Shown piece by piece: positions 3,272-63,828 of a stretch of 64,000 nucleotides of DNA (its first letter is position 1; each line of letters starts with the position of its first letter). Origin of the DNA: Acidaminobacter sp. (GTDB taxonomy: Bacteria; Bacillota; Clostridia; Peptostreptococcales; Acidaminobacteraceae). Under the pieces are notes generated by a model, which was not told the DNA's origin, did no database searches, and saw nothing but the letters and a program-made list of their open reading frames with translations. The position numbers and the translations under genes were made by a program. The stretch is from positions 2,463-66,462 of the forward strand of contig NZ_JAOTSB010000018.1 of the NCBI RefSeq assembly GCF_030247605.1. The letters run 5' to 3'.

Positions 3272-4273
3272 TTAACCCTCCCGTGACAATTTTTGACGAA
3301 TGGCTCTCTCTATCTGATCGATGACCGAATCGAGATCCGTCAGGCCGGCTGTGTCAAACCACTGAAGGGTCGGATATCGCTTGAACCAAGTGAGCTGACG
3401 CTTGGCGTAGCGCCTGGAGCTTTGCTTGATCAAATCCTTGGTCTCTTCAAGTGTTGCCAGTCCGTCTAGATATCGGAATACTTCCTTGTATCCTATACCC
3501 TGCATGGACTGACTTTTATCACTTAAACCCAAGTTTTTCAAAAAAATTATTTCGTCGATGAGGCCCGCCTCAAACATAAGGTCGACTCGCCGGTCAATCC
3601 GCTCATAGAGCGCTTGCCTATGGTCAGTGAGTCCGAGCAAAATAAAATTGAAACGCGGATTCGGAACGGGCGCGGTGTCGAAAGCCGGCGTCGCGGCACC
3701 TGTGGTCTCAAGCAGCTCCAGGGCGCGGACCACACGCCTTACATTATTGGGGTGGATTCGATCCGCAGCTTCGGGATCCTGGGCTCTGAGCCTATCATGG
3801 AGGGCATCCTTGCCCTCCTCTGTAGCTATGGCTTCAAGCCGTTTGCGCAGGGCGGCGTCCCCGCTGGCTCCGGAAAAATCCCGGTCAAACAGCAAAGCGT
3901 CGAAGTAGAGACCGGTGCCACCAACCAGAATGGGCAGTCTGCCCCTGGATAGAATGTCCTCCAGGCACTGCTCCGCAGCCGCTTTATAATCAGCGGCTGT
4001 AAATGGAAGATTGGGGTCCGCCACGTCCATCATGTGGTGAGGTACGCCCTCCTGCTCTTCTTTAGAAGGCTTCGCGCTGCCTATGTTCATGTGACGGTAA
4101 ATCTGCATGGAGTCCGCAGACACAATTTCGCCGTCAAGCCTGTGACAGAGCTCAATGGAGATCTTCGTCTTGCCAACTGCGGTTGGGCCTGCGAGCATGA
4201 CCACGTCTCTGGGGGATGCCGTGGGAGCTGGTTCGGCTGAATGGGCAGAAGTTTTTGAAAGTTGTAGAGTCAT
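3272..4273 (-). CDS. miaA: tRNA dimethylallyltransferase
   Basis: P-loop GPTAVGKT, then SADSMQIYR and GGTGLY motifs; lies between mutL and hfq. Confidence 0.95.
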
Positions 4274-4297: not shown

Positions 4298-6526
4298 TCA
4301 AGTTCTGAGGAATTTTTTCTCAATTTCCTGCCGTTCCATTCGCACCACGAGTGGCCGTCCGTGTGGGCAGGTATAAGGCGATTCAAGGGTTCTGAGCTCT
4401 TTGATCAATTGGGCCGCTTCAAAGGGCGTCAAGGCGTCGTTGGATTTGACAGCGGCCTTACAGGCCATGCTCATCAACCGGTCTTCAATGGGTTTCTGTG
4501 CGGCAGCGCGCAGTTCGTGGGCACTTTCTTTGTCCTTCAGCTGCTCAAAGAACCGCTTGGTACCAGGGACATCAAACAGCATTGGGACCTCTCTTAAGAT
4601 GAAGTCCGTTTCGCCGAAAGGTTCCAGGGTGAAACCAATTTTTTCAAGGGTCTCACTTCTCTCGCCCAGGAGCAGCGCTGTCGCTTGGTCGCATTCAATC
4701 AGAATGGGTTCGACTAAAAGCTGCCTCACGACTTCGCGACGCTCATAGTCGCGTTTCATCTTGGCATAAAGTATTTTTTCATGGGCGGCATGCTGATCTA
4801 TCAAAAGGATATGATTTTCCTTTTCATACATCAGGAAGGATTTGAAGAGCTGGCCAACATAGCGCGCGCTGTCATAAAGCGTCTCAGTGGGGGCCGTTTC
4901 GGTTGGTCTTGCGGCTTCTTCAAGTCCCGCAAATCTTGTCTCCGGGATCACGAGATTTTCGAGCAGCGTCGAGTCGAATCGGATGGGTTCGGAGTGCTTT
5001 GTAAAATCACGCCCGCCATAGCTGCTGCCCGACTCCCGGCTGACATTTGAGGTTTGTGTGACAGGCACATTTTTGGAGTTGGTGCCAGTCACGGAGATGG
5101 CGCTTGGGTCTGTCTCCGGATCTAAGTCGGTGCCCGTCACCGAGTCAGTATGGGTGCCTGTCACCAAATTCGTTTTGGTGTCTGACACTGATTCTGTTTT
5201 GGTGCCTGTCACTGAATTGAGTTTAGTGTCTGACCCCAAAGTGGATTCGGTGCCAGAGCTTGAACTATCTCGCCTTATATTTATGCCATTATATGGTGAT
5301 TCCGTAGGGCTTTTTGGTCTGTTGAACGAATCCAGAGCAGGTACTGGTGCCGATGGTCCCGGTTCGAAGGCCGGTTTCGCCACAAAACTTTTAACGGGAA
5401 CCTGCTGCCGCTGCTCAAGGGCCCGCTTCAACTCAACGGATAAAAAGTTCCGAAGGGCATCTTCCCTCTCGAACTTGATCTCCGTCTTTTGGGGATGAAT
5501 ATTGACATCACAGGCATCAGGCTGGATTTCCAGGTAAAGGAGCACCGCCGGAAACCGGCTTCCCGGAAGCAGTCCCTGATAGGCATATTGAATCGCGTCC
5601 AGCGTCATGCGGCTCTTCACGTAGCGCCCGTTGACAAAGGTCATCTGATAGTTGCGGTTGCCCCGTGTATAGTCAATCTTGGAGGCCCAGCCTGTCACTT
5701 TGACAAGCTCATTTTCAAAGCTGAACTCGAATAAAGAACGTGTCAGCCCACGCTCTAAAGTGGCGTAAGCCGCTGAAAAAACCTTATCATCTCCCGGCGT
5801 CTTGAAGACCAGCCTCTTATCGAGGACGAACTGAAAGGAAATCCCGGGATGGGACAAGGCCAGCTTGGTCATCAAGTCACTGATATAAGCGGCTTCTGAG
5901 GCCGCAGATTTCATAAACTTCAGCCGTGCCGGCGTATTGAAGAAAAGATCTTTGACGACAACGGTCGTACCGTGGGCCGCAGAGGTTGCTCTGCGGTCAG
6001 TCTCCCGGCCGCCGGCCAGGGTCATGTGAAGGCCTTCCTCGTCCTTTTGCCGCCGCGTGGTCAGCTCCAGATACGACACAGCTGCAATGCTGGACAGCGC
6101 TTCACCTCTAAAACCCAAAGTCCTGAGGGACACCAGGTCGTCTATGGAGGCGACTTTGCTGGTAGCGTGGCGTTCAAAAGCCAGGGGCACATCCTCCGGA
6201 TTCATGCCGCAGCCGTTGTCTGTGACGCGAATGTACTTCTTCCCGCCCTGCTCGACCTCGACGACAATACGGGTAGACCCGGCATCAATCGCGTTTTCAA
6301 CCAATTCTTTGATGACCGCCGCAGGGCGTTCGACAACCTCGCCGGCAGCGATTTTATCCGATACTTGAGGTGACAGTCTTTGGATCCGTTTGGGCTCGGG
6401 GAGGGTATGGGCTTCGGTGACCACTGGATGAATCTGTTCTGGTACGGATGAAGTCAAGACATCATCACCTTCATGTCCAGCGAGCTGTTCTTCATTCATT
6501 GATTTGTTTGGTTGGGTCATCCTCAT
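4298..6526 (-). CDS. mutL: DNA mismatch repair protein MutL with an expanded repetitive linker
   Basis: IAAGEVVERPAAVIKELVENAIDAG GHKL ATPase N-terminus and a C-terminal dimerisation/endonuclease domain (DQHAAHEKI). 742 aa, against roughly 615-630 aa for E. coli and B. subtilis MutL. Confidence 0.95.
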   Translation of the reverse strand: MRMTQPNKSMNEEQLAGHEGDDVLTSSVPEQIHPVVTEAHTLPEPKRIQRLSPQVSDKIAAGEVVERPAAVIKELVENAIDAGSTRIVVEVEQGGKKYIRVTDNGCGMNPEDVPLAFERHATSKVASIDDLVSLRTLGFRGEALSSIAAVSYLELTTRRQKDEEGLHMTLAGGRETDRRATSAAHGTTVVVKDLFFNTPARLKFMKSAASEAAYISDLMTKLALSHPGISFQFVLDKRLVFKTPGDDKVFSAAYATLERGLTRSLFEFSFENELVKVTGWASKIDYTRGNRNYQMTFVNGRYVKSRMTLDAIQYAYQGLLPGSRFPAVLLYLEIQPDACDVNIHPQKTEIKFEREDALRNFLSVELKRALEQRQQVPVKSFVAKPAFEPGPSAPVPALDSFNRPKSPTESPYNGINIRRDSSSSGTESTLGSDTKLNSVTGTKTESVSDTKTNLVTGTHTDSVTGTDLDPETDPSAISVTGTNSKNVPVTQTSNVSRESGSSYGGRDFTKHSEPIRFDSTLLENLVIPETRFAGLEEAARPTETAPTETLYDSARYVGQLFKSFLMYEKENHILLIDQHAAHEKILYAKMKRDYERREVVRQLLVEPILIECDQATALLLGERSETLEKIGFTLEPFGETDFILREVPMLFDVPGTKRFFEQLKDKESAHELRAAAQKPIEDRLMSMACKAAVKSNDALTPFEAAQLIKELRTLESPYTCPHGRPLVVRMERQEIEKKFLRT
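5058..5262. repeat. 24-bp phased array (9 units) with core GTGNCNGNCAC, in frame inside the mutL linker
   Basis: Cores start at 5058, 5082, 5106, 5130, 5154, 5178, 5202, 5226 and 5250, exactly 24 bp apart. The first core is GTGACAGGCAC and the last is GTGCCAGAGCT, as in the intergenic arrays. Confidence 0.85.
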
Positions 6527-21364: not shown

Positions 21365-21415
21365 GATAGTCAGGCTCCTTTGTGTTTTGAAATTTTCGAA
21401 CGGTTTTGATGGTAG

Positions 21416-21575
21416 GTGACAGGCGCCAGTTTGAAGTGAGTGTCTGACACTGAGTTGAAGTGAGTGTCTGACACTGAGTTGAAGTGAGTGTCTGACACTG
21501 AGTTGAAGTGAGTGTCTGACACTGAAATCGTTTCGGTGCCAGAGCTTGCGAGAATGTTTCTCAATAAATGTCGTT
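21416..21575. repeat. 24-bp phased array (6 units) plus conserved tail
   Basis: Cores at 21416 (GTGACAGGCGC), at 21440, 21464, 21488 and 21512 (GTGTCTGACAC, four identical 24-bp units) and at 21536 (GTGCCAGAGCT). Tail is TGCGAGAATGTTTCTCAATAAATG. Confidence 0.9.
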
Positions 21576-30871: not shown

Positions 30872-30898
30872 TTTTATGGATGGGGAAACTTCAAGTGA

Positions 30899-31040
30899 GT
30901 GACAGTCACCAAAGTTGAGTGAGTGACAGTCACCGAAGTAGAGTGAGTGTCAGACACCGAAGTAGAGTGAGTGTCAGACACCAACCCAAAACTAGTGCCA
31001 GAGCTTCACACAATTCTCGAACAATTTATTGGTGAGTCAT
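30899..31040. repeat. 24-bp phased array (5 units) plus tail, immediately after the response regulator gene
   Basis: Cores at 30899 and 30923 (GTGACAGTCAC), at 30947 and 30971 (GTGTCAGACAC) and at 30995 (GTGCCAGAGCT). Confidence 0.88.
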
Positions 31041-50706: not shown

Positions 50707-50799
50707 CTGCTTTGTGAGATTTTTGTTGTTGGCTGATGTGTCATTGATTTAAATGCCATCCCTATCATATCACATTTTTTATATGGTTAGAAGAAGTTG

Positions 50800-50906
50800 G
50801 TGACGCGGACAGAATTTGATTTAGTGCCAGTCACTGAGTTGAGGTTGGTGTCTGACACTCAGTCAAGTTTGGTGTCTGACACTCAGTCAAGCTTGGTGTC
50901 AGGCAC
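50800..50906. repeat. 24-bp phased array (5 units), degenerate terminal unit
   Basis: Cores at 50800 (GTGACGCGGAC), 50824 (GTGCCAGTCAC), 50848 and 50872 (GTGTCTGACAC) and 50896 (GTGTCAGGCAC). Confidence 0.85.
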
Positions 50907-50961
50907 TCACTACAATTCAGACACAATTCGTGAGGCATTCCCGGTCCACCGAATCAAAAAA

Positions 50962-51454: not shown

Positions 51455-51630
51455 AACCTCATCCCCAAACTAGAAAATGATCAGCCGGTTACGCCACTGG
51501 ATCCCTGCAGCCAAAGCGTCCAAATGCAGCTGCAGCTCAACTCCTCTGATGGCCTATTAATACCCAGAATGGCTGCGCGGAAAACAATCAATTGAGAATA
51601 ATTATCGATTGAAAAAGATTTTAAAACATA

Positions 51631-51871: not shown

Positions 51872-53044
51872 ATGACACGAGAACCCCTTTGGACACGAAA
51901 CTTCATCACTATTTCCATAGTCTTTTTCCTAGTCGCCCTGGTCTTCTACCTTCTCATGGTAACCATGGCCTCCTACGCCGCCACGGCCTTCAACGTCACT
52001 GAAAGCATGGCGGGCCTCGTCACGGGCATTTTCATCATAGGCGCCCTGACCGGCAGGATCTTCACCAGCAAACTCATGTCCCAAATTGGCAGCAGACGCA
52101 CCCTGCTGATAGGGCTTGGCCTGTTTACAACAGGTTCAGGGCTTTATTTTTTCGCGGTCAACATTCCGCTGCTGCTGACCATTCGCTTTTTCCACGGCAT
52201 GTCGACGGGGATCACCCTCAATGCCTCCGCGACCCTGGTCGCCCTCATGATCCCCTTCGCCAGGCGGGCCGAGGGGATTGGCTACTTCAGCACAGCCTCC
52301 GTCCTTTCTACAGCCCTCGGGCCGTTTCTCGGCATCTTTCTGCTGGAAAAAGCCGGCCTCCATTTCATATTTGGCTTTTGCCTGGCAATCAGCCTCATCA
52401 GCTTCGTCTTGTCCCTGAGGATCAGCGCACCGGCAGCGGATGCCGCTTCCAGCCCCACCCAAAAAGGCTTCAGACTCTCCGACACCTTTGAAATCACAGC
52501 GCTCCCCATCTCTTTGATCACAATGTTGTTAGGCTTCTCCTACTCCAGCATCTTGTCCTTCATCACCCTCTACGCCAAAGCCGTAGACCTCGTCTGGGCC
52601 GCCAGCTTTTATTTCGTCGTTTATGCCATCACCATCATCCTAACCCGGCCCTTCACCGGCCGCCTGATGGACCAGAGGGGCGCCAATCTCGTCGCTTACC
52701 CCACCCTCCTGACCTACGTCGCTGGTATGGTCCTGCTGAGCCAGTCCCGTCACGGGATTGTACTCCTCCTCGCCGCCGCCATTATAGGTTTGGGATACGG
52801 CAACTTCAACTCCGTCGCCCAAACCCTCTCCATCAGCAGGGTCCCAAGCGCGCGCATCTCTGTTGCCACGACCACGTATTTCATTTTCCTGGAGCTGGGC
52901 CTCGGCCTTGGCCCGTACCTCCTCGGCACCCTGATCTCGCTGACCGGCTACCGCGTTATGTATCTGAGCATGTCAGGCGTCATCGTGGTCGCGGCGGTGC
53001 TTTATCATCTGTTTTATGGAAGACATGAGCACAGGCAAGAATGA
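51872..53044 (+). CDS. MFS transporter
   Basis: 390 aa with a twelve-TM profile and the GRIFTSKLMSQIGSRR loop motif. Confidence 0.88.
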   Translation: MTREPLWTRNFITISIVFFLVALVFYLLMVTMASYAATAFNVTESMAGLVTGIFIIGALTGRIFTSKLMSQIGSRRTLLIGLGLFTTGSGLYFFAVNIPLLLTIRFFHGMSTGITLNASATLVALMIPFARRAEGIGYFSTASVLSTALGPFLGIFLLEKAGLHFIFGFCLAISLISFVLSLRISAPAADAASSPTQKGFRLSDTFEITALPISLITMLLGFSYSSILSFITLYAKAVDLVWAASFYFVVYAITIILTRPFTGRLMDQRGANLVAYPTLLTYVAGMVLLSQSRHGIVLLLAAAIIGLGYGNFNSVAQTLSISRVPSARISVATTTYFIFLELGLGLGPYLLGTLISLTGYRVMYLSMSGVIVVAAVLYHLFYGRHEHRQE

Positions 53045-53092
53045 GTCGATTCAGCAGCTCTTACAATGGAAATTTCCCAAAAACCCAAAACG

Positions 53093-53133
53093 TCTGCCGA
53101 TGGTCACTTAACCCACCATCGGCAGATGTTTTT
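53093..53133 (+). terminator. Intrinsic terminator after the MFS gene, built from a CTGCCGATGGTC inverted pair
   Basis: TCTGCCGATGGT - loop - ACCATCGGCAGA followed by TGTTTTT. Confidence 0.8.
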
Positions 53134-53240
53134 AATTTTGGATTAAAAGAAGGAAGACGGTGTCAGCTGCTAGCATCTATCAACCCCTTCTTCCTTCCAT
53201 TTAGCACCAAAATGCTTGCTTCTTGAAACCAAAAACGTTG

Positions 53241-53711: not shown

Positions 53712-53845
53712 GTTATGGCCACCTCTCATACGAAAACGTTGTCTGGTGCTGCCCACTATTATTCTAATTCATTATCTATATACCACTTGTCCGACATGAC
53801 AATCTTTCAAGTTCTCTTGAGGACTTCAAATACCTCCACAAGAAA

Positions 53846-53887
53846 AATTTCTGCCGATGGTCACATAATCAACCATCGGCAGAAATT
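53846..53887 (-). terminator. Intrinsic terminator after gdhA, built from a CTGCCGATGGTC inverted pair
   Basis: 16-bp stem AATTTCTGCCGATGGT/ACCATCGGCAGAAATT with a U-run on the minus strand. Confidence 0.8.
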
Positions 53888-53962
53888 CAATTATAGTGGA
53901 AGGCGGGGTTGACAGGCGCTAGCCGCAGACACCAATTTCCAGCTTCATATTCCTTACCATTA

Positions 53963-55300: not shown

Positions 55301-55528
55301 GGTGATCCCTCCCAAACGGATATTCATACATTTAAAAACCAATTGATAACGCTGATAAAATTAACCGAATGATCATGAACGTGTTCGAATTAGTTAATTT
55401 ATTGCTTAACAAGATTTATTCGAAGCGTTATCCTAAAACAACTTATTGAGGATTTTTACCCATCGCATAAATAATTATTCATATTTTTCTTAACCAAGCG
55501 GTGCCAGAAATTTCGAATTCCCCCCCCC

Positions 55529-55569
55529 AAAAAAAATGCCTGCCGATGGTCATTTTCACCCATCGGCAG
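55529..55569 (-). terminator. Intrinsic terminator after the MerR gene and 115-bp element, built from a CTGCCGATGG inverted pair
   Basis: CTGCCGATGG/CCATCGGCAG stem. On the minus strand it is followed by T8 and then G9. Confidence 0.75.
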
Positions 55570-55591: not shown

Positions 55592-55720
55592 AACTTCATT
55601 TTCCCGTACCTGGTAGTAAAAGTGAAGATAATGAAGTTGCTTTTCGTGAAATCTAGTAATATCAGTCTTTACAAAATACTTGTACGTCGGTGTTCCGAAA
55701 AACGTGCCAGGTACGGGACC
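55592..55720. repeat. 115-bp TIR-bounded element, copy 1 (MITE-like or structured 3'-UTR RNA)
   Basis: CCCGTACCTGG at 55603-55613 and CCAGGTACGGG at 55707-55717. About 94% identical to copy 2 and about 88% to copy 3 by manual alignment. Confidence 0.85.
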
Positions 55721-55724
55721 CCGC

Positions 55725-56531
55725 TTAATCAGCTACCCTCATTTGAACTTCTGTCAAAAATTCCTCTTGCTGAACGGTATAACGATTGTCAATATGGTAC
55801 AGCTCAAATGGGTCACCCAGCACGTCCATATCACGCGTATTCGCGTAATTCAGTATCTTCCGGATTTGATCCGAACTTTGCGCATACGTTCCGCGGTAAT
55901 AGACGCTGAGATACCGTCCTGCTGGAAGCATAAAATCGAAGTGGTCAGTTTCATTCTCCAAAATAATAAATACAGAATTAAACACCCCGTTGCCGCCCTT
56001 ATAAAAGTTTTCCATGGAGGGAACAGCTCCAATGGACAAGTTGCCCAGCTCACAAAGTATGGCGTCATGCTTCATGTGGAGTTTGTTGATGGCAAAATCA
56101 GTTTCCTCATCTCGGGTAATCTCAGCGTTGAGGCGCAGGCAGAACCTGTCTGAGTAAGTTCTGACGACGCATTCTCCAACCTGAACAGAAGACAAATAGT
56201 TCAACATTTCCATGCGGGAGTGAAGGGCTGCTTTGGCAGCACGAAGGGTCTCCAATTGTGTTTCAATAAGGGCCTGTTCTTCCTGAATCAACACCAAAGA
56301 ATTTGTGATGCATTGATCATCCAAATAGGCCTTGATCTGCTTAAAAGAAAAATCGAGACTTCTAAGATCCCGAATGATATTCAGCTTATAAATTTCTTTT
56401 AGGCTGTAAAGGCGATAGCCGTTATCGTCCCGTTTAGGGGTCAATATCCCGAGTTTCTCATAATATCGCAGCGAATCAATGCCAATCTTGTAGAGCTTTG
56501 ATATCTGATTGATCTTGTAATAGTCTTTCAT
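55725..56531 (-). CDS. MerR family transcriptional regulator with GyrI-like effector-binding domain
   Basis: YKINQISKLYKIGIDSLRYYEKLGIL HTH and a C-terminal GyrI-like domain; ATG at 56531. Confidence 0.88.
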   Translation of the reverse strand: MKDYYKINQISKLYKIGIDSLRYYEKLGILTPKRDDNGYRLYSLKEIYKLNIIRDLRSLDFSFKQIKAYLDDQCITNSLVLIQEEQALIETQLETLRAAKAALHSRMEMLNYLSSVQVGECVVRTYSDRFCLRLNAEITRDEETDFAINKLHMKHDAILCELGNLSIGAVPSMENFYKGGNGVFNSVFIILENETDHFDFMLPAGRYLSVYYRGTYAQSSDQIRKILNYANTRDMDVLGDPFELYHIDNRYTVQQEEFLTEVQMRVAD

Positions 56532-56648
56532 TAAAAGGATCACCTCATTATTAAAACTTAAGAACATCACTTGACCCTAGTATTATACCAGGGTTTACAC
56601 TTAGGATGTGATACAAATTGTTCCAGTCAAAAAGAGAGGTTAACCATC

Positions 56649-57403: not shown

Positions 57404-57455
57404 AAAGCTGCCGATGGTCGCTTGTGTATATGACGACCATCGGCAGCTTTTTCAT
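57404..57455. terminator. Bidirectional terminator hairpin built from a CTGCCGATGGTC inverted pair
   Basis: 17-bp stem AAAGCTGCCGATGGTCG/CGACCATCGGCAGCTTT with T-runs on both strands, between convergent genes. Confidence 0.8.
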
Positions 57456-57576
57456 TTTCCCGTACCTGGTAGTAAAAGTGAAGATAATGAAGTTGTTTTT
57501 CGTGAAAACAAGCAATATCAGTCTTTGCAAAATATTTGTACGTTGGTGTTCCGAAAAACGTGCCAGGTACGGGACC
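57448..57576. repeat. 115-bp TIR-bounded element, copy 2
   Basis: CCCGTACCTGG at 57459-57469 and CCAGGTACGGG at 57563-57573; same 115-bp span as copy 1. Confidence 0.85.
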
Positions 57577-57581
57577 CGTTC

Positions 57582-58316
57582 TTAATAGCATTTATAAGCA
57601 TTCTTAGGCAGCGTCATCCAACCGCGCGCTTCATCTTGATGCACAAGAATCGTCCGTTCCCAGTTCAAATAGACCATCTTGACCATGTCTTCACACAGCC
57701 CGACCTGATCCGAATCATCGACATGGGAACCATCCAGGCCGCAGACGCGCTCTGCGCCTGTAACTTTTTTCAACTCAGCCGCTTTGAGGCTATCTCCGGC
57801 AGCGCCGGCATAAATCTTGCCTTTGATCCTGCCGTCGTGGCCATTCAGTCGAAGCCCCACGCCAGCAATAGCGCCTATCACCCCGCCACCTGTCCCGCCA
57901 TGCTCGGACAAATGAACCTTCGTGGATTCTGCCAGCTCATAAGCCATGGCTTTCGTCACCAAACCCGCTTTTGCCTGCCGACCAAAGGCAATCAGCCGCT
58001 CCAGACCCTGAATCTGATCCCGAACCGCAACACACAGGCCTGGGTCTGACCCTTCTTCGCTGACCTCCAGCAGATGCTCCTGGGCCAGCGCGATCACCTG
58101 CGCCAGAGCGCCGCATACCAGTTCTGCTTCAAAACACATGGCGCTGTTATGGGAGGTGTAAGGCACCTCCTCATGGACATAGAGCTGGTGCCTGGTAATA
58201 TAGCGGGTCGTTCCCAGTCCGAGGGCTTCAATCTTCTGCCGCAGCGCCTCCGCGTGGTGGCCTGTGCCTGGGGTGCCCAGACTGTCGGTGTCATCTATAG
58301 CTATCAATACTCTCAT
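57582..58316 (-). CDS. Hypothetical protein resembling the N-terminal ATP-utilising domain of archaeal TiaS
   Basis: MRVLIAIDDTDSLGTPGTG start, PYTSHNSAMCF, SDPGL and a GGTGGGVIGAIAGVG segment resemble, from memory, the TiaS N-terminal domain. No OB fold or zinc ribbon. 24-nt gap and a GAGGTGA RBS after the SBP gene. Confidence 0.6.
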   Translation of the reverse strand: MRVLIAIDDTDSLGTPGTGHHAEALRQKIEALGLGTTRYITRHQLYVHEEVPYTSHNSAMCFEAELVCGALAQVIALAQEHLLEVSEEGSDPGLCVAVRDQIQGLERLIAFGRQAKAGLVTKAMAYELAESTKVHLSEHGGTGGGVIGAIAGVGLRLNGHDGRIKGKIYAGAAGDSLKAAELKKVTGAERVCGLDGSHVDDSDQVGLCEDMVKMVYLNWERTILVHQDEARGWMTLPKNAYKCY

Positions 58317-62075: not shown

Positions 62076-62265
62076 CCGGTTATTGCCTATGAGTCATCAC
62101 AAAAACAGCGGTGATCCCATAGACACGTCAGACTCTTTCTTTCCAAAACGGGAGGCTGTGGGATTTCTCCCCTAACCCAGGTTGGTGACCATAGCAAAAA
62201 GTAAGCCGTAGGTCATTCAACTCGAAATGAGCGCGATATTCAGTTGGCAGTTTTGACATGTCTAG

Positions 62266-62363: not shown

Positions 62364-62401
62364 GCCGATGGTCAGATGGCGTACATCACATGACCATCGG
62401 C
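62364..62401. repeat. CTGCCGATGGTC-family hairpin between divergent transcription units
   Basis: GCCGATGGTCA - 16-nt loop - TGACCATCGGC. Confidence 0.75.
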
Positions 62402-62579
62402 AGCTAATATCTTCATGCCTTTCTTGTAGTGTACACAAAAACTAATAACGAACGCAGGTCCAAACTCTACCCCTTCCCTTCCCAAATGTTGTATAATTAG
62501 ACAAAGCTTTTATATGGCTGACGGGGATCTGGCCATTTATTACCCGTTAAAGTCAAACCAACAAGCGAGGGGATCAAAC

Positions 62580-63602
62580 ATGAGCAAAGTCTACTTCATA
62601 AAAAATGAAAGCCTCAATGACGATCAGCTGGGATCAGATGCATTGAAGCTGCTTAAGACAGTGGTCGCGGCGTCCGGGCATACCTTTGAAAAGGAGGTCC
62701 CGCTCAAAGTGCATTTTGGAGAAAAAGGTAATACGACCTTTCTGTCAGCCAAATGCTACGACCCAACCATTCAATATCTGAAAGAGATGGGGGTCTCCCC
62801 TTCCTACATAGAAACCAACGTTCTCTACAGAGGATCGCGAACCACCACGGATAAGCACCTGGAAACCGCGAAAGCCCACGGCTTCTCCCAGATTCCAATT
62901 ATCATTGCGGACGGTGACCTCGGTACAGAGTATGTTGAGGTAGAGATCCCTGGAGAGTATATAAAAAAGTGTAAAATTGGAAAAGGTTACGGCAGGTTTA
63001 ACCAATTTATTGTCATGAGCCATTTCAAAGGCCATATTCAAGCTGGGTTTGGCGGGGCTTTGAAGCAGCTGGCCATGGGCTTTGCGGCCAGAGGCGGCAA
63101 GCTGGAGCAGCATGCCGGCATCGCGCCGGTTGTGTCTGCAAAAAAATGTGTGTCCTGTGGACTCTGTATCGAAAAATGTGACTTTGATGCCATTGAAATG
63201 ATTAATACTGCGGTGATTGATCCGGACAAATGCGTGGGCTGCGCGGGCTGTATTGCTGTCTGCCCGGAAGGCGCCATCCGCAACTCCTGGTCGGGCTCCA
63301 ACTTCCTGGAGAAGCTATCAGAATACGCCCTGGGTGCAGCCAAAGACAAGGACATCATCTACATCTCCTTCATCAGCAATGTCACCGAGGAATGCGACTG
63401 CACCGGCATCCACATGAAGCCCATTGCGGATAATATTGGCGTTCTAGCCTCGAAAGATCCTGTAGCGCTGGATACCGCCTGCCTGGACCTGCTTCAGCAG
63501 CGCAGCCGCAAGAAGCTCTTTGAGAATGGTCGAGTGTCTTTGAAGCACGCTGAAAAGATTGGGCTGGGGACTATGGCGTATGAATTGGTTGCGCTGGATT
63601 AG
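62580..63602 (+). CDS. DUF362 domain protein with 2x[4Fe-4S] ferredoxin insert
   Basis: MSKVYFIK...LKVHFGEKGN start, CVSCGLCIEKC and CVGCAGCIAVCP clusters. The ATG at 62580 follows GAGGGG. Confidence 0.85.
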   Translation: MSKVYFIKNESLNDDQLGSDALKLLKTVVAASGHTFEKEVPLKVHFGEKGNTTFLSAKCYDPTIQYLKEMGVSPSYIETNVLYRGSRTTTDKHLETAKAHGFSQIPIIIADGDLGTEYVEVEIPGEYIKKCKIGKGYGRFNQFIVMSHFKGHIQAGFGGALKQLAMGFAARGGKLEQHAGIAPVVSAKKCVSCGLCIEKCDFDAIEMINTAVIDPDKCVGCAGCIAVCPEGAIRNSWSGSNFLEKLSEYALGAAKDKDIIYISFISNVTEECDCTGIHMKPIADNIGVLASKDPVALDTACLDLLQQRSRKKLFENGRVSLKHAEKIGLGTMAYELVALD

Positions 63603-63626
63603 GAAAGATCAAAAATGATAAAGCTG

Positions 63627-63655
63627 GCCGATGGTTGTTATAATTCACCATCGGC
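63627..63655 (+). terminator. CTGCCGATGGTC-family hairpin after the DUF362 gene
   Basis: GCCGATGGT - loop - ACCATCGGC; weak T-run. Confidence 0.55.
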
Positions 63656-63657
63656 AT

Positions 63658-63781
63658 AACTTCATTTTCCCGTACCTGGTAACGCCAGTGAAGTTAATGA
63701 AGTTACTTTTCGTGAAAGCAAGCAATATCAGTCTTGACAAAATAATTGCACGTTGGTGTTCCGAAAAACGTGCCAGGTACA
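63658..63781. repeat. 115-bp TIR-bounded element, copy 3 (right inverted repeat truncated)
   Basis: CCCGTACCTGG at 63669-63679; the right end CCAGGTAC at 63773-63780 stops short of GGG. Confidence 0.8.
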
Positions 63782-63784
63782 GAA

Positions 63785-63828
63785 AAAAGGCTGCCGATGG
63801 TCATTTGAAGCGCCATCTGCAGCCTTTT
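63785..63828 (-). terminator. Intrinsic terminator after the ParE/RelE gene, built from a CTGCCGATGG inverted pair
   Basis: AAAAGGCTGCCGATGG / CCATCTGCAGCCTTTT (one mismatch), with a U-run on the minus strand. Confidence 0.7.

Follow-up and report, generated by a model that had tools for sequence, protein, structure and literature searches.

A putative mobile, non-coding DNA repeat at the borders of accessory gene modules in Acidaminobacter-type genomes

Introduction

A stretch of 64,000 nucleotides of Acidaminobacter sp. DNA (the window; the whole of the DNA analysed here) carries, within 8.5 kb, three copies of a short element with inverted terminal repeats. A preliminary description made from the sequence left the nature of this element open between a non-autonomous MITE and a structured RNA gene or module, and the locus thus raises the question of what the element, here called E, is, and how it came to lie where it does. 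Our analysis of the window and of related loci is best explained by a lineage-specific, non-coding, non-autonomous and hairpin-forming mobile DNA repeat of the MITE or REPIN type, a reading that we consider probable though by no means secure. If it holds, E adds a new family of small mobile repeats to a clostridial lineage that has received little study, with an unusual mix of features: absence of target duplication, strict local co-orientation, placement between stop codons and terminators, and a location at the edges of modules for toxin-antitoxin and defence functions.

Results

Copies of the element in the window

E is present in the window as three direct, co-oriented copies (E1, E2 and E3), recognised both by reading the sequence and by a repeat finder (family D2). 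The copies and the palindromes around them are:

55540..55569, no strand assigned: terminator-type palindrome CTGCCGATGG...CCATCGGCAG, which on the minus strand follows E1 and is followed by T8
55595..55721, + strand: E1, with arms at 55603-55613 and 55707-55717 and a T-rich conserved flank at 55595-55602
57407..57447, no strand assigned: bidirectional terminator-type palindrome beside E2, with a GCCGATGG stem
57451..57577, + strand: E2, with arms at 57459-57469 and 57563-57573; 94% identity to E1
63625..63657, no strand assigned: palindrome with a GCCGATGG stem, between a DUF362 gene (62514-63602, + strand) and E3
63661..63787, + strand: E3, with its left arm at 63669-63679 and a right arm that ends GGTACAGA at about 63783; 85% identity
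63789..63824, no strand assigned: second palindrome beside E3, the terminator of a minus-strand ParE gene, abutting the right end of E3 (repeat family D3)

The preliminary description had placed the three copies correctly, and their ends were recovered by an 11-mer, by probes and by the repeat finder. The arm sequence CCCGTACCTGG or its complement occurs five times in the window against 0.59 expected (at 55603, 55707, 57459, 57563 and 63669) and is confined there to element ends. Probes for the left end (19 nt) and the right end (22 nt), allowing up to three mismatches, recover all three copies with an expectation of at most 0.03. The sole additional probe match in the window is a left end with three mismatches at 52880, and an nhmmer profile detected no further copies in the window.

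The identity of 88-94% first reported for the three copies was confirmed as high but is somewhat wider in range (85-94%), E3 being the lower at 85%; this copy is 94-96% identical to copies from a sister species (L025_5038 and L030_3662). Conservation outside the arms was likewise upheld on the left, where the flank is longer than first described (AACTTCATTTT) and its T-rich character is kept throughout the family, whereas the right flank ACCC is limited to E1 and E2. The string GTTAAAT lies outside the repeat and follows E1 alone. The right end of E3, described earlier as truncated, may instead be an allele (GGTACAGA), to judge from a metagenome copy (L032_1357) that has an identical end together with a compensating left arm, TCTGTACC.

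E1 adjoins a minus-strand gene of the MerR family (55725-56570), at 3 nt from its stop codon (55725-55727). Read along the minus strand, the stop codon of MerR is followed by E1, then by a hairpin with a GCCGATGG stem and by TTTTTTTT, and E1 therefore lies between a stop codon and a terminator. E2 is 4 nt from the stop codon (57582-57584) of a minus-strand gene of 244 aa, and the palindrome beside it is also found at the orthologous empty site in locus L034 and so is not part of the element. E3 is flanked by two terminator hairpins and lies 3' of a minus-strand ParE-toxin gene (stop codon 63827-63829) that continues past the window end; a homologous ParE gene and hairpin are present without the element in L037. 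The earlier observation that no transposase is nearby holds for the genes checked around the window copies, but not beyond the window, since in a sister species a RAYT-like Y1 transposase gene lies directly beside a copy.

Anatomy of the unit

The unit of E measures about 125-135 bp and is almost fixed in length, its copies aligning nearly gap-free. On the + strand it comprises the T-rich flank (TTCATTTT or TTTCTTTT), the left arm, an interior of about 90 nt and a right arm ending GGTACGG(G). The arms form an imperfect terminal inverted repeat of 11-14 bp (CCCGTACCTGG / CCAGGTACGGG), and three blocks are conserved, namely the left arm, TGAAGTTnATGAAGTTGTTTTTGnTGAAA and a 33-nt right block, GTTCCGAAAAnCGTGCCAGGTACGG. 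Over 35 copies, 86.7% of the cells of the terminal inverted repeat are paired; breaks in this stem are uncompensated in several lineages (e.g., the right arm CCTGG in L025 and L030), and mixed arm alleles exist (TCTG..CGGG and CCCG..CAGA). The + strand, opposite to most adjacent genes, is the more stable in 27 of 35 copies, with a mean of -34.3 against -31.4 kcal/mol. G.T wobbles in the terminal stem fall in 39 cells on the + strand and 14 on the minus strand; these cells are not phylogenetically independent, and the asymmetry is a hint only. At several loci, pairs in head-to-tail order and stuttered fragments of either end are frequent, as with CGAAAAACGTGCCAGGTACGGGGGTGC, which occurs three times in L004 and L027, and CTGTACCTTTTCTGTACCTGG, which is found in several loci.

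Family size and distribution

The preliminary description had proposed a search of relatives for further copies, and pattern scans followed by profile searches over all loci retrieved yielded at least 51 full-length copies, 39 of them unique. The E family thus numbers at least 50 copies, spread over related genomes of Acidaminobacter type. The opposite case that had been considered, with only three copies lying within larger segmental duplications, is contradicted both by this number and by the extent of similarity, which ends at the element borders in comparisons of the window with the other loci and within the window itself; E1 to E3 are thus not parts of larger segmental duplications, and this origin was rejected. 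One true tandem duplication was seen, of a lipoprotein gene plus E in L017.

All recovered copies come from Acidaminobacter-type DNA, namely one MAG and a few related metagenomes, and the window itself maps onto an 87-kb ENA metagenome contig (L036). The MerR-family protein beside E1 shows 100% identity to a protein recorded under Acidaminobacter sp., a name that the proteins of the source contig carry as well. A 19-mer from the right end, scanned over 185,579 species genomes (one per species), gave nine matches in a single uncultured Acidaminobacter MAG and one match in each of five unrelated genomes, with no element similarity around the latter. A left-half pattern scanned over metagenome contigs gave at least 22 loci from a handful of JGI samples. 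An origin of E from phages, plasmids or viruses was rejected, as the collections of viral contigs, phage records and plasmid records contained no copies. Part of the block conservation reflects ascertainment, because the scan patterns fixed bases in the retrieved copies; the left arm and central block are also kept in copies retrieved by the right-end pattern, and the 33-nt right block in those retrieved by the left-half pattern; copies that came from profile searches likewise keep the blocks.

Arrangement among accessory modules

Wherever a locus contains two or more copies, these are co-oriented: the window together with L036 (four copies), L025/L030 (five), L027 (seven) and L024 (six), as well as L004 with L009, L019, L020 and L032. 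By our own arithmetic, under a null of independent random orientation, the joint chance of this co-orientation is about 1e-7. The clusters occupy accessory regions at a spacing of 1-6 kb, usually with one functional module per segment. The accessory modules near copies include toxin-antitoxin systems, defence ATPases and regulators; among those recognised were a Phd-family antitoxin with a neighbouring small ORF, a HigB/HigA-like pair, YoeB/RelB, NTase pairs, an SLFN/AlbA_2 ATPase, ATPase_2/DUF234, AAA_14/DUF4143, and Shedu-like and NERD proteins. Copies within a locus mark the edges of single accessory modules, and repeats of this kind mark variable genome islands. Some segments between repeats are operons of 6 kb that carry a riboswitch of their own, and singleton copies are found on contigs of 90-260 kb beside ordinary genes.

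A long ORF on the opposite strand ends 0-60 nt from the right arm in about 20 of the 34 copies that could be scored, the gap being 12 nt or less in about eight of them; in most of the copies scored, the element precedes the terminator of the gene concerned. The genes run with the + strand instead in L024 and at singletons in L012/L023, L013, L020, L031 and L033. Co-oriented arrays beside stop codons are not predicted by the model of a classical cut-and-paste MITE.

Turnover at orthologous sites

In a sister species with about 88% nucleotide identity to the window, gene order is shared. At the site orthologous to E2 (L034, 9067-9090), the flanking genes and the terminator hairpin are alike and the element is absent, and only the last 24 nt (CCAGATACGGGAAAATGAAGTTAA) are left at the E1 site in L034. 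A full orthologue of E1, about 9% diverged, is retained in L040, with changes that include an arm (CCCATACC) and the most conserved block (GGTACATTTATCGG), while in L042 both the element and the terminator are missing at the site 3' of MerR. The changes within arm and conserved block of the L040 orthologue imply that resident copies erode at roughly the background rate, and the conservation between copies is therefore better explained by requirements of copying than by function at each site.

Presence/absence polymorphism was thus observed at the MerR 3' site and at the E2 site, with junctions that are not clean; no clean filled/empty pair was found at strain-level distance, the 'empty' sites differing by more than the element. 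At L024, the frame of a type I restriction R-subunit gene (hsdR) stops exactly at the left border of an element, and the remainder of the gene is missing. The truncated hsdR, the presence/absence at orthologous sites, the partial ends and the 51 copies together bear out the earlier suggestion of a MITE-like multi-copy element. No target-site duplication was detected in 37 copies over 160 boundary offsets (16 left by 10 right) and six lengths (2-8 nt), the best result being five to seven two-nt matches against one to three by chance. Identical copies at different sites were not seen, which counts against the MITE/REPIN reading, and no parent insertion sequence with the same terminal inverted repeats and a transposase was present in any locus retrieved.

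A candidate enzyme

The sole transposase-like gene near any copy encodes a protein of 279-283 aa in which a Y1 (IS200-like) domain at the N-terminus is combined with an HTH at the C-terminus. Among NCBIfam models it best matches REP-associated tyrosine transposase (NF047646; E = 1e-20), at 73.9 bits against a cut-off of 80, and relatives of the protein are named RayT by JGI. The gene lies downstream of comM-dprA in every relative examined, and on account of this position it appears single-copy and vertically inherited. In the MAG species, an element follows 32 nt after the stop codon of the RAYT-like gene, on one side of it only, and one assembly breaks inside that copy. In L039, a homologue with 70% identity precedes a variant of the element in which both arms have changed in concert (GTTCCTGG / CCAGGAAC). 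No element was found beside the homologues of L037, L038 and L046, and another contig ends too early. Linkage across relatives is accordingly mixed, and the RAYT-like Y1 transposase is a weak candidate for the mobilisation of E, with a link to the element that is no more than suggestive.

A group II intron in a fourth copy

The source contig (L036) holds a fourth copy about 2.4 kb past the window end, where Phd-ParE is followed by a group II intron that splits the element. The intron is recognised by Rfam models RF02005 and RF00029, and its RT/maturase matches TIGR04416. It is inserted at ...GTGCCAGGTA / CGGGAAAATG, starting with GTGCG directly after ...GTGCCAGGTA and ending just before CGGGAAAATGAAGTTA, the remainder of the arm and flank; it is compact (about 1.9 kb, the ORF beginning after about 420 nt) and sits exactly at the 3' foot of the inverted repeat. 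These borders within the arm imply that homing took the intron to the gene-sense strand of the element's long stem, at its 3' foot; this position speaks indirectly for extrusion of the inverted repeat as a stem-loop in vivo. Copies of E offer group II introns sites for homing.

Class IIC introns are described in one published account (PMC1702495) as lying just downstream of terminators or other inverted repeats. The compact size of the present intron would fit this class, which is a candidate assignment only; an assignment through RT similarity to PDB chains was dropped, as that comparison did not discriminate between classes. Like the stem-loops targeted by group IIC introns (terminators and attC sites), E carries its intron at the foot of an inverted repeat, but this says no more than that a stem-loop target is available in E, and does not define what E is.

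Discussion

A probable mobile repeat moved in trans

Under the favoured reading of E as a MITE- or REPIN-type mobile repeat, its conserved blocks would be cis-acting sequences for mobilisation by an enzyme supplied in trans, rather than RNA or protein signals. The absence of target-site duplications, the local co-orientation and the hairpin-forming ends argue against DDE cut-and-paste transposition; the data fit a single-strand or a site-specific route. Movement might thus involve a single-stranded hairpin intermediate, by a HUH/Y1-type mechanism or by another route without target duplication. New copies would tend to insert next to those already in place, or in the interval from a stop codon to its terminator hairpin, and this preference, combined with local recombination between co-oriented copies, could build the arrays. 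Two observations sit less well with a MITE or REPIN: the architecture of gene modules and the abutment on stop codons are better predicted by a model of attC-like cassettes, and the arms are not palindromes, with an interior that is as conserved as the arms.

Comparison with known systems

The known systems closest to E are REPINs and MITEs of the ERIC, Correia and RUP type and, in arrangement, the attC repeats of chromosomal integrons. With REPINs of the REP-RAYT system E shares a size of about 100-120 bp, an extragenic location, inverted arms able to fold as one long hairpin, a non-autonomous nature without target-site duplication, tens of copies and vertical inheritance within the lineage, and in one species E lies directly beside an apparently single-copy Y1-transposase gene. 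In contrast to REPINs, however, the arms of E (CCCGTACCTGG) are not palindromic REPs and have no conserved GTAG-type tetranucleotide, the interior is as conserved as the arms, and the copies of an array all point one way; the RAYT-like gene, moreover, is flanked on one side, scores below the cut-off and has no adjacent element in three of the relatives covered.

ERIC/IRU, Correia (CREE) and RUP/BOX elements are MITE-like repeats of enterobacteria, Neisseria and pneumococci, respectively, 100-160 bp in length and with terminal inverted repeats. Like E, they are non-coding, occur in intergenic regions or 3'-UTRs, are co-transcribed with their neighbours and vary in presence among relatives; they duplicate TA or other targets and lie in either orientation across the genome. 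E differs in having no target-site duplication, in its local co-orientation and in its placement at module borders, often abutting stop codons. A classical DDE MITE is likewise a short non-coding unit with terminal inverted repeats and polymorphic presence, but is set apart from E by its target-site duplication.

The attC sites of integrons (e.g., the Vibrio VCRs of about 120 bp) and of CALINs resemble E in several respects: they are imperfect inverted-repeat sites of about 120 bp in a single orientation, one follows each module, whose stop codon lies near the site or within it, many cassettes are of toxin-antitoxin type, arrays may lack an adjacent integrase, and group II introns use them as targets. 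E differs by its lack of RYYYAAC/GTTRRRY cores, of a hairpin bulged at R and L boxes and of IntI, and by solo gain and loss without genes, operon-sized segments and dispersed singletons. Since it fails at least one defining feature of each system compared, E is best described as a small mobile repeat that is a member of none of them. A superficial similarity of its minus-strand end (GGGGTC...ACGTACAAG) to the 38-bp inverted repeats of Tn3-type elements was set aside, the repeat of E being only 12-14 bp.

Cassette sites as an alternative

An alternative that we regard as unlikely, yet as the foremost among the rivals, is that E is the attC-like site of an integron-like capture system without an IntI-type integrase, in which the mobile unit would be a gene module plus E. 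A recombinase, either a Y1/HUH enzyme or an unlinked one, would then act on the folded + strand and build co-oriented arrays. This would be consistent with the single functional module per inter-repeat segment, with the common orientation of all sites of an array and with the close approach of upstream stop codons, as well as with the better folding and wobble tolerance of the strand opposite the genes. In size (about 120 nt) and in conservation within a lineage, E is comparable to the attC repeats of chromosomal integrons. Beside the DUF362 gene, moreover, two sister species hold different modules at the same conserved E position, the mixed arm alleles could be recombinant sites, and the group II intron within a site recalls the IIC-attC introns of integrons.

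Several results are at odds with such a system. No integrase or recombinase was found in the gene calls and Pfam scans of parts of L001, L003, L004 and L025, nor among the called genes of L034-L044. On reading the sequence, the core motifs RYYYAAC and GTTRRRY are absent from the ends of E, and instead of a long bulged attC hairpin only the terminal 11-14 bp pair consistently. The element was gained or lost on its own, without a gene, at the E2 and MerR sites; the singletons beside ordinary genes in long contigs, the operon-sized segments with their own riboswitch and the genes that run with the + strand in L024 and at several singletons would also be unexpected of cassettes. To our knowledge, classical integrons are rare in this phylum; if the cassette explanation were true, it would mean integron-like gene capture in Clostridia, outside the IntI world.

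A passive flank as an alternative

Improbable to a similar degree is the proposal that E is not mobile itself but is a conserved flank that spread passively, with modules exchanged by homologous recombination, for example after natural transformation, and E acting as a portable homology anchor. Variable modules bounded by co-oriented repeats would be expected on these grounds, synteny with the sister species breaks exactly at E3, comM-dprA is present, and neither transposase, target-site duplication nor identical copies were found. This explanation leaves unaccounted for, however, how E first arrived at dozens of unrelated sites, the truncation of a gene at the exact border of an element, the stuttered partial ends, and the solo presence or absence of E while both flanking genes are unchanged.

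Putative coding capacity and RNA function

The second possibility raised in the preliminary description, a structured RNA gene or module, fared poorly. As an RNA, E would act either on the minus (gene-sense) strand, as a co-transcribed module in 3'-UTRs or between cistrons that alters the stability or processing of mRNA, or on the + strand, as an independent small RNA; we judge this to be quite unlikely, and comparative data lend it no support. Its position inside transcription units, between stop codon and terminator, would suit such a role, as would the copy in L017 that lies between co-transcribed genes with no intervening terminator, and single copies fold well on the + strand (-44 and -42 kcal/mol, z about -5.5). 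Against this, the interior of E shows no secondary structure that is conserved. Applied to 35 unique copies, RNAalifold kept the terminal stem and three invariant pairs, with a covariation term of -0.17, and retained no pairs on the reverse strand, and the minimum free energy structure of E1, imposed on the alignment, paired 78.7% of cells against 78.9% in shuffles. Rfam 15 gave no match to E in the window or related loci at gathering or permissive E-value thresholds; the Rfam matches elsewhere in these sequences are riboswitches only.

The covariation claimed for the central hairpin (TTGNTTT/AAANCAA), a 7-bp stem rich in T4/A4, was upheld as a weak signal, the observed value being reached in 4-5 of 500 shuffles, but by the calibration of the tool unconstrained trees reach it in 5-25% of cases. 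A pure MITE had been envisaged as many copies with no covariation and with clear target-site duplications; the first of these features agrees with our data, and the second does not. Many copies without convincing covariation favour a MITE. Further points against an RNA are the terminal pairs broken without compensation in several lineages, a better-folding strand that is antisense to the genes that would carry E, the lack of a promoter-like site inside the copies in a sigma-70 scan, orthologous copies that decay or vanish while neighbouring genes are unchanged, and the functionally unrelated nature of these neighbours.

That E encodes a small protein (MKLLFVKSSNISLYKILVRRCSEKRARYG on the + strand, VPGTFFGT... 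on the minus strand) is extremely improbable, although both frames are open in some copies and a few third-position changes in ACG/ACA/ACC look synonymous. Neither candidate frame (MKLLFVK... on the + strand, VPGTFFGT... on the minus) survived tests of stops and of pN/pS in six frames: at most 18 of 36 copies are free of stops in any one frame, and pairwise pN/pS is 0.77-1.17 across all six. ATG is absent from many copies and stops fall at varied positions, in agreement with the earlier judgement that E is not a peptide gene.

Three other candidate functions were rejected: a sigma-54 promoter on the minus strand (TGGCACG-N4-TCGG), whose -12 GC is absent on reading the sequence; an intrinsic terminator, as a stem with a following U-run is present on neither strand and the T-run of the + strand precedes the stem; and a template or variable repeat of a DGR, as the differences between copies are not adenine-specific. 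On a practical note, several contigs end inside a copy of E, and the element thus breaks assemblies.

Over-represented 9-mer in the window

The 9-mer GCCGATGGT, with CTGCCGATGGTC as its extended form, occurs 34 times in the window, against 0.51 occurrences expected. Intergenic occurrences (21 of the 34) are mainly arranged as inverted pairs with loops of varying length, and these pairs form the terminators of many operons in the window; the remaining 13 are lone copies within ORFs, with both strands used.

53087-53136, 53844-53893, 55540-55569, 57407-57447, 62364-62401, 63625-63657, 63789-63824: GCCGATGGT sites (examples)
5349, 9928, 26996, 38557: GCCGATGGT singletons (examples)

The word was also found in the sister-species loci. 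Its distribution resembles that of an over-represented word of the DNA-uptake-sequence or Chi-like type, which to our knowledge would be unusual in a clostridial lineage; relatives carry comM and dprA.

Surroundings of the element copies

A pair of homopolymers lies directly past the terminator that comes after element copy 1, upstream of the gdh promoter region. Slippage could occur at this tract, which is absent from the orthologous site of the sister species. Two riboswitches were also identified in the window, and the operon associated with the second is located between element copies 2 and 3.

55520-55537: C9-A8 homopolymer pair (T8-G9 on the minus strand)
51474-51556, minus strand: c-di-GMP-II riboswitch, upstream of a 100-aa DUF5658-type gene
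62119-62241, minus strand: Moco/tungsten riboswitch, upstream of an ABC-transporter operon

Interrupted, extended and duplicated copies

A fourth copy of the element, on the source contig (L036), is interrupted by an intron with a 464-aa RT/maturase, inserted in the arm of the element exactly at GGTA|CGGG; stuttered partial arms (GTACCTGCATGCCCGTACCCGGACTTGCCCGTACCTGG) lie upstream of this copy.

L036 142-2037, about 2.4-4.3 kb past the window end: compact group II intron

Several array copies in the MAG species carry an extra conserved stretch of ~190 nt (L004 1700-1890 and 2900-3090; the D2, D3 and D6 families of L027), giving a repeated unit of ~320 nt. This extension, which follows the element on the gene-sense strand, includes a strong terminator (AAGCGCCTCCGGAG..CTCCAGGGGCGCTT) and the ~100 nt that precede the next gene, and the opposite side of the extended copies carries G-rich GGGGGTGC stutters. 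At one end of the MAG array, a chimeric, almost palindromic copy (L003 1848-2003, equal to L029 682-837) begins with a left arm of the normal kind, but its interior is foreign and is followed by the reverse complement of the left half of an element and then by two stuttered right ends.

In locus L017 (8384-10148), downstream of an ECF sigma/anti-sigma pair, a lipoprotein gene and its element are duplicated in tandem with a period of 870 bp. The element sits here between co-transcribed genes: it starts 1 nt past the stop codon, and the RBS of the following gene lies ~35 nt beyond its end.

Other repeats

The contig with a 68%-identical RAYT-like gene (L045) ends 46 nt past the stop codon of this gene (3700-3746), within a GGGACGAGGGACAAG tandem repeat that may represent another repeat family adjoining the RAYT-like gene. 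A repeat finder detected the D1 family at four places in the window, which are probably repeat-containing coding regions.

5079-5262, 21413-21548, 30896-31007, 50797-50932: D1 repeats, 24-nt period
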